DNA from: a virus | Direction: 5' to 3' (one strand) | Length of the DNA stretch: 25,123 bases | Virus record (IMG/VR): IMGVR_UViG_3300012979_000178 | In this document: positions 646 through 2,601 of the stretch, piece after piece | Layout: the number at the start of each line of letters is the position of its first letter | How positions within the stretch are numbered: position 1 is the first letter of the stretch | Translations under genes and position numbers: made by a program | The notes under the pieces: model-generated | What the model saw: only the letters and a program-made list of their open reading frames with translations | What the model was told of the DNA's origin: nothing | Database searches by the model: none

Positions 646-2601
646 ATGGCAACTAATTATGAAACAGTTACAAGTTTACTAAAAGCCACTTGTGATGCAA
701 TTAGAGAAAAAGAAGGCAGCACTGGATTAATTAACCATTAGGATATACCTTCTCGTATATAGAATTTAAAATCGTCAAAACAAGATGTTCTTAGTTTAGT
801 ATCTGGATTAACTAAATATACTGAAGCTTTTGAGGTAGATGGAGAACAACGAACTAATGTTTTAGTTTAGCCATCTGACTTTTCCGATGAAACAACTGTA
901 ACTTGGAGTAGTACAACCACTTATTTTTCTCATTCAATTCAAAATGTTGAAGGAAGCGAAAACGGTGCGGCGGCTGTTATTACAGCAACATCTACTTCTG
1001 CTTCTAGCTATGATCACACTTTTTGGTTTGATACTACTATAGATAGTAGTACTTCAGAAGCAAAATCTTATTTAATTGCAGTTAGAGCAAAAGCCAACAA
1101 AAACATTACTTCAAATTTACCTACTTATGTGTGTTATTGTCATCCAACTGGAAGTACTAGTTAGGCAACTATATATTTTAGTTTTCCTATAACAACAGAA
1201 TGGCAAATATTTTATGCTATTGTTAATATTCCAGCTAATTATTATATGTATGATAATACATTATCTTTTTATCGAACAGGAGATAGAACAATATATTATG
1301 TTGACTGGGTGGCCGCCTATGATATTACTGGATCTAGTTTTGCTAATATGACTTTTGGGGCAAGAGCAACAGCTACCAATGCTCATGTCCTTAGTGGACA
1401 ATCTTATTATAAAGATGGAATGTTATATACTGGAACTATGACAAATAATGGGGCGGTAAATGGTTCAATAACCAATTTATCCACTCCATATACCATTCCT
1501 GCAGGATATCATAATGGTGAGGGAACAGTGTCAATAAGCGATAATGATCTTATTGCTTCAAATATTAAATCTGGAGTTAATATTTTAGGCGTAACAGGAA
1601 CTTTAGATTCGATATCAACCAATTGTAATACTTGGCAAGTTCAAAACGTAGGAGCTACCTATGGATTTACTAAACTTTCTAATGGATATTATGAAAGTAC
1701 TAATCAAGGAATTAATTCTTCTGTTTCATTATGTAAAATTAAGTTTAGAATTTTACTTGGTTCTGTAATAACTTTTAGCTGTATCAACTATGCAGAAAGC
1801 AATTATGATTATGGTATGATTGGAGTAACTAATGTAATTTTAGATGAAACTTATAGTAATAAAGAATATAATGATACCACAAAAATATAGAAACATTTTA
1901 AAAGCTCTAGCAGTTCTAGTGCATAGACTTATACAATGACGCTTGCAAAAGGAGAATATGAAGTTTATATTAAATATTTTAAAGATGGAAGTAGTCATAG
2001 CGGTAATGACTCTTTTAGATTTAAAATTACTGGGGGAGCAGTAGAAATTGATCCAAATATGGGAATAACTCCTTCTGTAATAGTGCAATATAGTAATGAT
2101 TATTTGGACCCAGGAGATGGAATAGAGTTTTCTGCAGGCACTTATATGCCAAATGGCTATAATATTACTGCGAATAATTCTATTATTTCATCTTCTACTT
2201 GTGGAACAACAGGAAGAATTACAAGTAATTCTTGTAGTTCAACCTCAGTTAGTTTTTCATTAAATACTGAATATTTAATAGGTTTTGTTATGTGGTGTAG
2301 TGATGAGGTTTCACAAAGTAGTAATTATAGTAGAATAGCTATGTTAAGCTATGTTAGCGAAGATGGAAGTGATTTAACTAATTGTTTAGAGGGGCAAGAA
2401 GTAACTTGTTAGTCAGTATGTACATCAAAAGGAGATGTAAATGAAGATGATATATGCCATCATAGTCATTTATATAATGAAGATGATATTAGTATATCTA
2501 TATCATCGAATAGTATGACTATCACTGTACTTTATACAGACTATTATAGATTTGATAGTTCATATGATTATTATATGTTACCAATTTATTCTCAATTATA
2601 A
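646..2601 (+). CDS. large T/S/N/G/Y-rich protein resembling a tail fibre or receptor-binding protein. Seven in-frame TAGs (739, 760, 868, 1162, 1888, 1921, 2410) are read as sense. The three track ORFs 1246..1890, 1936..2412 and the downstream frame are joined in the same frame.
   Basis: Strong RBS AAGGAGG at 634-640 and ATG at 646. Frame 1 is continuous except for TAG codons until the TAA at 2599-2601, which sits immediately before the intrinsic terminator. The internal ATGs at 1246 and 1936 have no RBS. The extension beyond 1890 is less certain than 646..1890. Confidence 0.55.

Follow-up and report, generated by a model that had tools for sequence, protein, structure and literature searches.

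Phages that read the TAG stop codon as a sense codon (genetic code 15) have been documented in the gut, and in these phages late genes and a homing endonuclease gene are preferentially recoded (Borges et al., 10.1101/2021.08.26.457843). The TAG-to-Gln recoded gut phages include crAss-like, Lak, and Garnet/Amethyst/Sapphire/Agate/Topaz-type clades, and suppressor tRNAs were detected in only 40% of the TAG-recoded genomes (Borges et al., 10.1101/2021.08.26.457843). In two crAss-like phages, TAG recoding has been proved by proteomics (Peters et al., PMC9523058). A further case is phAss-1 of the proposed Phassvirus group, a 136-kb gut phage with TAG inside 41 open reading frames (ORFs), including hallmark genes, for which it has likewise been argued that annotation under code 11 fragments such genes (Babkin et al. 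2023, PMC10607447).

Here we analyzed a 25,123-nt stretch of viral DNA (IMG/VR record IMGVR_UViG_3300012979_000178; the window hereafter), with emphasis on the frame at positions 646-2601. The window very probably belongs to a low-GC phage of ~150-200 kb in which TAG is a sense codon, most likely for glutamine, and 646-2601 is very probably one 651-aa gene for a modular tail fibre/receptor-binding protein. It resembles the phages of Borges et al. in having in-frame TAGs within conserved genes, alignment of these TAGs with Gln, and avoidance of TAG as a terminator. The resemblance extends to a concentration of recoding in structural (tail) genes and homing endonucleases alongside metabolic/early-type genes that remain compatible with code 11, as well as to low GC, a large genome, and the presence of standard-code and TAG-free close relatives. 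Approximately 20% of the window genes are recoded, compared with 26% in the least-recoded clade of Borges et al. In contrast with those phages, a nucleotide search with the whole window matched none of 50,697 deposited phage records, and no suppressor tRNA or RF2 was seen within the 25-kb piece; moreover, Borges et al. emphasise lysis-cassette genes, whereas recoding here affects a tail-fibre gene. With regard to phAss-1, it carries three suppressor tRNA genes, none of which has a visible counterpart in the window, and no sequence relationship between the two was detectable in our search of the phage collection. Given the earlier records of code 15 from gut phages, the find is real but ordinary, and no new mechanism is revealed here.

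A single frame across seven TAG codons

Translation from ATG 646 to the TAA at 2599-2601 gave 651 sense positions with exactly seven in-frame TAGs and neither TAA nor TGA (Table 1), which bears out the single 651-codon gene proposed in an earlier, sequence-only reading of this DNA. TAA and TGA together occur off-frame at 8.8% per codon in the window genes, and the chance of 651 codons free of both is ~1e-26. The two code-11 ORFs at 1246..1890 (214 aa) and 1936..2412 (158 aa) share the frame of ATG 646 and, as that reading had also stated, only the start at 646 is equipped with a ribosome-binding site, no Shine-Dalgarno motif being present upstream of 1246 or 1936. The same reading expected standard-code annotation to yield three ORFs plus intergenic space; the fragmentation holds, but the count does not, since code-11 translation of 646-2601 gives pieces of 31, 214, 158, and 28 aa in addition to uncalled sequence. 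Past TAG 2410 the frame does go on, with 62 sense codons before the TAA. The terminator, previously described as a 13-bp stem 9 nt after the TAA, was essentially right: the stem as measured is a perfect 14 bp with a 7-nt loop, can be extended to 20 pairs via A-T pairs, and co-varies in the related locus L001, where compensatory changes preserve the pairing.

Table 1 Coordinates and properties of gene 646-2601, its in-frame TAG codons, and flanking features.
Feature	Position (nt)	Strand	Remarks
Tail-module gene, 158 aa	159..635	+	Two in-frame TAGs (207, 213); upstream, co-oriented, and translationally adjacent to 646-2601; same recoding
Shine-Dalgarno AAGGAGG	634..640	+	Read directly; 5-nt spacer to ATG 646-648; overlaps TAA of upstream gene (633-635)
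Single CDS, tail-fibre/receptor-binding-like	646..2601	+	651 codons plus TAA; TAG translated as sense, most likely Gln (code 15)
N-terminal helical region and linker, aa 1-80	646..885	+	Predicted helices 8-23 and 31-44; family-conserved; three TAGs
TAG, aa 32	739..741	+	CAG in L001 and L002; CAA in L008
TAG, aa 39	760..762	+	TAG in L001, L002, L003, and L010; variable in distant relatives (Glu, Thr)
TAG, aa 75	868..870	+	In conserved motif NVLVQPSDFSD; CAG in all three TAG-free relatives (L006-L008)
First beta-sandwich, ~aa 85-230	898..1335	+	pLDDT block means mostly 67-87; in conserved N-terminal half
TAG, aa 173	1162..1164	+	Variable loop column (alignment)
Fibre-repeat region, ~aa 235-325	1348..1620	+	Motifs VLSGxxYYKDGxxYTGTM and LIASNIKSGVNILGVTGT
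CBM-like jelly-roll, ~aa 330-470	1633..2055	+	pLDDT block means 76-95, most >81; bridges the two code-11 ORFs
TAG, aa 415	1888..1890	+	Apparent stop of ORF 1246..1890; within confidently modelled beta-sandwich; TAT in MT837960
TAG, aa 427	1924..1926	+	Same domain as TAG 415; CAA (Gln) in standard-code phage MT837960
Variable Cys-rich C-terminal region, aa 471-651	2056..2598	+	Poorly modelled; ends in family motif YRFDSSYDYYMLPIY
TAG, aa 589	2410..2412	+	Apparent stop of ORF 1936..2412; TAG in L001; purifying selection downstream
Intrinsic terminator hairpin	2604..2650	+	Core stem 2610-2623 / 2631-2644, then T-run

Two homologous proteins are colinear with the window product over its full length, namely P0001 (651 aa, 88% identity) and P0002 (631 aa, 63% identity); the DNA of both has in-frame TAGs, which the database gene caller already reads through. 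When the homologues were searched for independent genes starting at 1246 or 1936, none was found, and the methionines encoded there (Met201 and Met431) were not conserved: L002, L006, and L007 have Leu at these positions, and L009 has Tyr. The homologous N-terminal half is one ordinary ORF without any TAG in L006, L007, and L008. In the standard-code phage MT837960, the ORF for this half ends in TAG, and the aa 330-470 domain runs uninterrupted across the positions aligned to TAG 415 and TAG 427. Approximately 30 homologues matched only the first ~49% of the query and have different C-termini. The C-terminal motif YRF.S..Y..P.Y is shared with the ends of other proteins of the family. No relative was confirmed when IMG/VR was searched with the fibre protein.

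Comparison with L001 gave dN/dS values of 0.14 (aa 1-200), 0.24 (aa 201-414), 0.23 (aa 431-588), and 0.12 (aa 590-651), with an excess of changes at third codon positions in each of these four main segments. The last two values cover the frame beyond 1890 and 2410, which is thus conserved as a continuous frame. Considering every inter-TAG segment separately, dN/dS was 0.07-0.24 with the exception of one 15-codon piece (0.43). These comparisons indicate that purifying selection is acting on all inter-TAG segments, including those before ATG 1246 and after TAG 2410. At 10% nucleotide divergence, L001 keeps 5/7 TAGs, and each window TAG is kept as TAG in at least one of L001, L002, L003, and L010.

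Amino acid encoded by TAG

TAG and the CAR codons for glutamine are interchanged among relatives of this gene. The aa 75 column has Gln in 29/43 aligned homologues, and at aa 650 the window has CAA where L001 has TAG. The same interchange with Gln codons was observed in genes 159-635, in which TAG 213 is CAA in both L001 and L002, and 12336-13187, and TAG/CAA swaps between close relatives were seen in three genes. A crude test of BLOSUM fit over 25 TAG columns scored Q highest (21.6), followed by E (18.5), and all other residues were negative. For these tallies, codons opposite TAG were counted in real genes only, given that a tally over all ORFs produced a spurious TGG signal from ORFs in non-coding frames. 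Several TAG columns (aa 39, 173, 415, and 589) are variable, with relatives showing Glu, Ser, Tyr, or Val, and the glutamine assignment therefore rests mainly on aa 32, 75, and 427, with further support from three columns at other positions or in other genes. On the basis of these alignments, TAG in gene 646-2601 most likely encodes glutamine (genetic code 15).

With Gln inserted, tryptic peptides that would span the TAG sites can be predicted, e.g., EGSTGLINHQDIPSR and SSSSSSAQTYTMTLAK.

Domain organization of the predicted protein

The 651-aa product is rich in T, S, N, G, and Y and has multiple cysteines, consistent with the earlier description (S 14%, T 11%, I 7.5%, Y 7.4%, N 7.2%, G 6.8%; 13 Cys). 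No Pfam family was assigned to it, and a PDB profile search returned no match. Structure was predicted with AlphaFold2 for P0001, which is 88% identical to the window product (mean pLDDT 63; values in Table 1 are means of 10-residue blocks). In this model, the parts would be ordered as an N-terminal anchor (helices plus beta-sandwich), fibre repeats, a CBM-like jelly-roll, and a Cys-rich C-terminus, with a single, confidently modelled domain predicted to cross both TAG 415 and TAG 427. The C-terminal 180 residues showed no recognisable fold in the P0001 model. Foldseek matches were to CBM4, CBM16, and CBM22 in the PDB, and to tail fibre, minor tail, and host-specificity proteins in BFVD.

The fibre-repeat region matched PHROGs 28171, 38337, and 13589 (function unassigned) as well as annotated tail fibre proteins. 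By tblastn, aa 238-341 matched annotated tail fibre/tail proteins of phage phiOH2 and Dulem virus 36 (E 8e-9); with the tail fibre of the Thermus/Geobacillus phage phiOH2, the fibre-repeat motifs are shared at 38% identity. Gene 646-2601 lies only 640 nt from the window start, and its tail-module context was read from relatives, in which the neighbours of the homologue include Phage_fiber_2, Phage_fiber_rpt, Peptidase_S74, Peptidase_M23, and tape-measure genes. The CBM-like domain appears mobile within the family: it occupies an internal position in the window product, lies at the C-terminus in L010, and has a gene of its own in MT837960. More generally, the family combines a conserved N-terminal part with variable, exchangeable C-terminal modules.

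The product is similar to fibres of Bacillota phages in its CBM-like jelly rolls (cf. tail proteins with CBM-cenC domains in BFVD), conserved N-terminus, swapped C-terminal modules, and tail-gene neighbours in relatives, but differs in having no Pfam family or solved sequence homologue. Together, the tblastn matches to annotated tail fibres, the tail-module neighbours, and the fold matches point to a modular tail fibre/receptor-binding protein with CBM-like domains, in agreement with the tail-fibre-like label given at first reading. The predicted CBM-like fold matches can only be suggestive of a place in the virion and of receptor binding. The host, which uses Shine-Dalgarno sites, is probably a member of the Bacillota.

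TAG usage across the window and decoding

Across the 25 kb visible, the stops of the 32 window genes are 25 TAA and 7 TGA, and none is TAG; TAG terminators were also absent in the relatives L001-L003 and L008. Window genes hold only 20 in-frame TAGs, whereas their two off frames contain 154 and 138. Six genes account for all 20: two of the tail module, three endonucleases (one GIY-YIG, two HNH-like), and one small gene. In the GIY-YIG product, the alignment to PHROG 7168 covers residues 1-297 and runs through all 8 of its TAGs. The NAD-salvage, RNA-repair, MVP-like, and flotillin-like genes have no in-frame TAG. Recoding thus appears concentrated in tail-module genes and homing endonucleases, with late timing read from gene type.

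Neither ARAGORN nor Rfam (at gathering thresholds and at E<=1) detected a tRNA of any kind in the 25-kb window, and no CUA tRNA was found by ARAGORN in the related loci L001-L026. The tRNAs that these loci do have are ordinary ones, including Gln-UUG, and are limited to the more distant relatives. Neither the window nor the ~45 kb homologous neighbourhood of relatives contained a gene for a suppressor tRNA or a release factor. The window also has no terminase gene, and an exact look-up of its flotillin-like protein returned no record. Because no suppressor tRNA occurs in this 25-kb piece of a ~150-200 kb phage, we infer the decoding machinery, which is typically a CUA-anticodon suppressor tRNA, sometimes with RF2, and would lie outside the window.

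If the model of Borges et al. applies, host RF1 would terminate translation at TAG early in infection, already at codon 32, and therefore no fibre would be made at this stage. Once the decoding machinery of the phage is expressed, the seven TAGs would be read as Gln and the full-length protein produced. This switch may restrict tail genes and homing endonucleases to late infection.

The first TAG lies within the first 50 codons in 6/6 TAG-bearing window genes, and TAG has a median relative position of 0.32, versus 0.55 for CAA/CAG (p ~0.01, in a small post hoc sample). It is conceivable, though we would not count on it, that in-frame TAGs in this lineage are preferentially placed near the 5' ends of late genes. 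A rule of this kind was not found in the text of Borges et al. (10.1101/2021.08.26.457843).

Alternative explanations

Under the standard code, seven breaks could mark a decayed tail-fibre pseudogene in which at most ORFs 1246-1890 and 1936-2412, the only two that a standard gene caller keeps, are expressed. We regard this as extremely improbable: TAG accounts for all seven breaks, and neither TAA, TGA, nor a frameshift interrupts a frame whose chance occurrence was estimated above; they are largely retained in L001 and each in at least one relative; dN/dS is low in all four main segments, including sequence outside the two ORFs; and other intact genes in the window carry in-frame TAGs too, while none of the 32 ends in TAG. 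It is equally improbable that 1246-1890 and 1936-2412 represent separate genes, possibly along with 2441-2518, and that the remainder is intergenic. Each has an ATG, and the competing 25-codon ORF at 2441-2518, noted previously for its good ribosome-binding site, does exist with GGAG upstream, but its ATG (replaced by ACG) and its Shine-Dalgarno motif are both lost in L001. For the other two, the missing Shine-Dalgarno motifs and the Leu or Tyr found in place of Met201 and Met431 argue against independent starts, as does the one folded domain that, in the model, would cross the 1890/1936 junction. Furthermore, the 600 nt upstream of 1246, which would be intergenic, show the strongest conservation in the family, as judged from the 49%-coverage matches and the dN/dS of that segment.

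Accepting a single gene leaves the question of how TAG is read. Programmed stop readthrough occurs in some RNA viruses, and a low-efficiency, context-dependent version of it would give a nested ladder of isoforms with no change of code; truncated products are indeed expected before a code switch, and no decoding machinery was seen in the window. Nonetheless, this is very unlikely, considering that seven successive stops would leave a negligible yield of full-length protein unless suppression were efficient. In addition, the base after the 20 in-frame TAGs (A 10, G 4, T 4, C 2) reveals no common context across the six genes, TAG is avoided as a terminator throughout the window, and TAG is freely exchanged with CAA/CAG between relatives. 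Somewhat less improbable, but still unlikely, is that TAG is sense and specifies another amino acid, e.g., glutamate, or is decoded ambiguously by near-cognate tRNAs. Glutamate was second-best in the BLOSUM fit, GAG or GAA is found opposite aa 39, aa 582, and several columns of the GIY-YIG gene, and the window and related loci have no tRNA that would fix the identity of TAG. Against this, the only strongly conserved columns (aa 75, 32, and 427) pair with Gln codons (Table 1), the TAG/CAA swaps link TAG to Gln in three genes, and Gln is also the best-aligning residue in the TAG-recoded phage genomes reported to date (10.1101/2021.08.26.457843; PMC9523058). A single gene with TAG read as glutamine is hence the reading that we prefer.

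Implications for phage annotation and biology

Annotation with the standard code splits the receptor-binding gene 646-2601 and misses all of its first 200 codons, where conservation is highest; it also truncates the neighbouring tail gene and the homing endonucleases. Translation table 15 is needed here for host-range prediction, protein clustering, and structure prediction. The window adds one more large, low-GC lineage to the TAG-to-Gln recoded phages, with TAG-free and TAG-using close relatives, and fits the published idea that recoding holds late genes until the decoding of the cell has been changed. If the tentative placement of TAGs near the 5' ends of late genes is true, recoding would be an early-abort design and not merely a passive lock on late genes, and fewer wasted or toxic truncated receptor-binding proteins and homing endonucleases would be made before the code switch.

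Frame, boundaries and selection

The sequence-only reading had proposed a single frame that runs from an ATG at 646 with its own ribosome binding site through seven TAGs to a TAA, and our analysis confirmed this in all essentials (see table). The window has a GC content of 30.7%, TAA and TGA make up 8.8% of codons in the off frames of its genes, and the chance of 651 codons free of both is near 1e-26. The split expected under the standard bacterial code (code 11) was borne out, with pieces of 31, 214 (1246-1890), 158 (1936-2412) and 28 aa in place of three ORFs, and no Shine-Dalgarno motif was found before 1246 or 1936, as had been stated for both. 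The terminator described beyond the TAA is indeed a perfect stem, with a core of 14 bp rather than 13 bp, and a related locus (L001) keeps it via compensatory changes.

Coordinates of the fibre gene and other features of the window
Feature	Position (nt)	In-frame TAGs	First TAG (codon)	Remarks
Tail-module gene	159-635	2	17	
Shine-Dalgarno AAGGAGG	634-640			ahead of ATG 646; read from sequence
Fibre gene	646-2601	7	32	ATG 646 to TAA 2599-2601; broken by TAG alone
TAGs of fibre gene	739, 760, 868, 1162, 1888, 1924, 2410			aa 32, 39, 75, 173, 415, 427, 589
Hairpin 3' of TAA	2610-2623 / 2631-2644			perfect core, then T-run
Promoter-like TTGATT-17-TATAAT	2656-2684			in fibre-to-MVP-like gap, 2650-3230
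Open frame	2866 to stop 3049-3051			TAGs at 2884, 2977, both conserved in L003
Major-vault-protein (MVP)-like gene	3231-5780			849 aa; MVP_shoulder, Vault_3
HNH-like endonuclease	10077-10811	1	29	
HNH-like endonuclease	12336-13187	1	48	
Small gene	15988-16440	1	20	
GIY-YIG/NUMOD homing endonuclease	21923-22858	8	13	311 codons
SPFH/flotillin gene	23467-24906			479 aa
NAD salvage set	13696-14253, 16455-17690, 18237-18800, 18800-19531, 19528-19977			TAG absent from all
RNA-repair-like set and genes beside it	10818-12248, 14262-15176, 20586-21275, 21343-21816, 22875-23429, 8504-9400, 6188-6505			

L001 aligns without indels at 90% nucleotide identity, and dN/dS against it was 0.14 for aa 1-200 (5' of ATG 1246), 0.24 for aa 201-414, 0.23 for aa 431-588 and 0.12 for aa 590-651 (past TAG 2410), with an excess of changes at third codon positions in all four segments. 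The continuous frame is therefore conserved beyond 1890, where a loss of conservation would have spoken against one gene. The 15 codons from TAG 415 to Met 431 gave 0.43 from three differences, too few to read. A competing 25-codon ORF at 2441 was rejected as a rival, since L001 has ACG for its ATG and lacks its GGAG.

Homologues and the sense reading of TAG

Searches of a large protein database returned two full-coverage homologues, P0001 (651 aa, 88% identity) and P0002 (631 aa, 63%), while about 30 more proteins match the N-terminal ~320 residues only. The DNA of P0001, P0002 and two further homologues (P0003, P0004) also carries in-frame TAGs, where the database gene caller had already placed Gln; code-11 translation of this DNA does not reproduce the database proteins. 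TAG-free versions occur in three relatives (L006, L007, L008). Independent starts at 1246 or 1936 find no echo in the homologues, as P0001 and P0002 are full-length and neither Met is conserved (aa 201 is Leu in L002, L006 and L007; aa 431 is Tyr in L009). The human-gut phage record MT837960 reads as standard code because its relevant ORF is terminated by TAG, and its domain homologous to aa 330-470 is uninterrupted across the positions aligned to TAGs 415 and 427.

With TAG taken as a sense codon, all plausible genes of the window stop at TAA (25) or TGA (7) and none at TAG. In-frame TAGs number 20 in 7,624 codons, compared with 154 in one off frame and 138 in the other, and are restricted to six genes. 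Profile alignments run through the TAG positions of both HNH-like products and of the GIY-YIG product (PHROG 7168, residues 1-297). Leaky-stop readthrough is disfavoured, because the TAGs have no sequence context in common. TAG is almost certainly a sense codon here, and 646-2601 a single gene.

The GIY-YIG gene, which has an AAA_33 kinase gene on one side and a metallophosphatase gene on the other, is the densest in TAG (53% of its Gln codons are TAG), and the HNH-like genes flank an RNA ligase gene. For Agate phages, which recode TGA (code 4), Borges et al. (10.1101/2021.08.26.457843) reported that the homing endonuclease of a group I intron is preferentially recoded.

In the equivalent of the fibre-to-MVP-like gap, the related locus L003 has database small genes of 96 and 57 aa (3 and 2 TAGs) and a third of 53 aa without TAG. 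Such TAG-bearing small genes would be missed or shortened by code-11 annotation.

Amino acid inserted at TAG

At aa 75 (motif NVLVQPSDFSD), all three TAG-free relatives have CAG, and 29/43 aligned homologues have Gln. TAG 32 is paired with CAG, CAG and CAA in relatives, TAG 427 with CAA in MT837960, and aa 650 is CAA in the window and TAG in L001; genes 159-635 and 12336-13187 likewise show TAG exchanged with CAA. Partners at conserved columns are thus Gln codons, and the remaining columns with a TAG vary. When 25 columns were each scored with a simple BLOSUM measure, Gln came out on top (21.6), followed by Glu (18.5), and every other residue was negative. Because of these partners and this ranking, Gln is favoured, not proven, and judging from the alignments TAG very probably encodes it; the fibre gene would then use 7 TAG, 12 CAA and 0 CAG. 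TAG-to-Gln decoding has been proven by proteomics in two crAss-like phages (PMC9523058). Among real genes, a single TAG/Trp pairing was seen, in a small membrane-protein gene (7729-8052; L003 17124-17447) where L003 has TAG and the window has TGG at position 7774. Either a W-to-Q change is tolerated there, or the pairing hints at decoding that is not strictly Gln.

Predicted role of the fibre protein

Pfam and PDB sequence searches with the fibre protein gave no match. Its residues ~225-346 match PHROG profiles that have no assigned function, as well as proteins of phage phiOH2 and Dulem virus 36 annotated as tail fibre or tail proteins, and in relatives the homologue neighbours Peptidase_M23, Phage_fiber_2, Phage_fiber_rpt, Peptidase_S74 and tape-measure genes. 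An AlphaFold2 model of P0001, used as a stand-in (mean pLDDT 63), begins with helices at the N-terminus, followed by a beta-sandwich at ~85-230 and a second one at 331-470, which is of high confidence and covers TAGs 415 and 427 (10-residue block means of pLDDT 76-95, most >81); the final 180 residues are poorly modelled. Foldseek returned CBM4, CBM16 and CBM22-type jelly rolls from the PDB and tail fibre, minor tail, host-specificity and CBM-cenC proteins from BFVD. The CBM-like module is internal in our gene, C-terminal in L010 and a gene of its own in MT837960, the kind of module shuffling that receptor-binding proteins are expected to show. The annotated matches, tail-module neighbours and structural hits uphold the earlier 'tail-fibre-like' label, and a tail fibre or receptor-binding role is likely.

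Other genes of the window

The MVP-like and SPFH/flotillin genes prefer CAG over CAA (30:1 and 21:1) and AAG, and have a GC3 of 0.26-0.28; the rest of the window favours CAA and AAA, with a GC3 of ~0.15. The CAG bias of the MVP-like gene is kept in L003 (31 CAG, 0 CAA) and L008 (26:2). These biases suggest genes that are very highly expressed or of foreign origin; no paper on phage proteins of the MVP-like type turned up in a brief literature search. The near-complete NAD salvage set (isochorismatase/nicotinamidase-like, NAPRTase, NMNAT-like cytidylyltransferase, NAD synthase and NADAR domain proteins) may, we assume, counter NAD-depleting host defences. An RNA-repair-like set comprises an RNA ligase, a Thg1-like tRNA-His guanylyltransferase family protein, an AAA_33 kinase and two metallophosphatases, beside an RNase_T exonuclease and a T7 Gp5.9-like RecBCD inhibitor.

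Decoding and code state among relatives

We note that TAG recoding, its annotation consequences and the proposed role are all already published, and that current gene callers already cope with the homologues. The lineage is undescribed among deposited phages, since none is a nucleotide-level relative of the window, which is usual for metagenomic phages.

No tRNA was found in the window, which covers ~25 kb of a genome estimated at 150-200 kb, and no CUA tRNA in 26 related loci. In more distant relatives, ARAGORN placed unusual tRNA-like genes, with 'anticodons' of 2 nt, within tRNA arrays (L026 16249-16321, L019 16034-16104, L025 10368-10438). By analogy with published code-15 phages (TAG read as Gln), the likely decoding agent would be a suppressor tRNA encoded by the phage, perhaps together with RF2.

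TAGs are skewed toward gene 5' ends, with median relative positions of 0.32 versus 0.55 for CAA/CAG (13 genes from the window, L003, L008 and L001; Mann-Whitney p=0.011, KS p=0.017; small n). This bias is modest and post hoc, and is the only lead with some novelty.

With regard to code state, L006 and L007 have no in-frame TAG in called genes and no TAG terminators (0/8 and 0/10), and L008 has TAGs in its Phage_fiber_2 gene only. This pattern agrees with the published scenario in which TAG is first depleted and later recoded and, judged from codon content, shows that the predicted code state differs among close relatives. The fact that TAGs are concentrated in genes for tail proteins and homing endonucleases fits the late-gene timing model for recoding in code-15 phages (10.1101/2021.08.26.457843).
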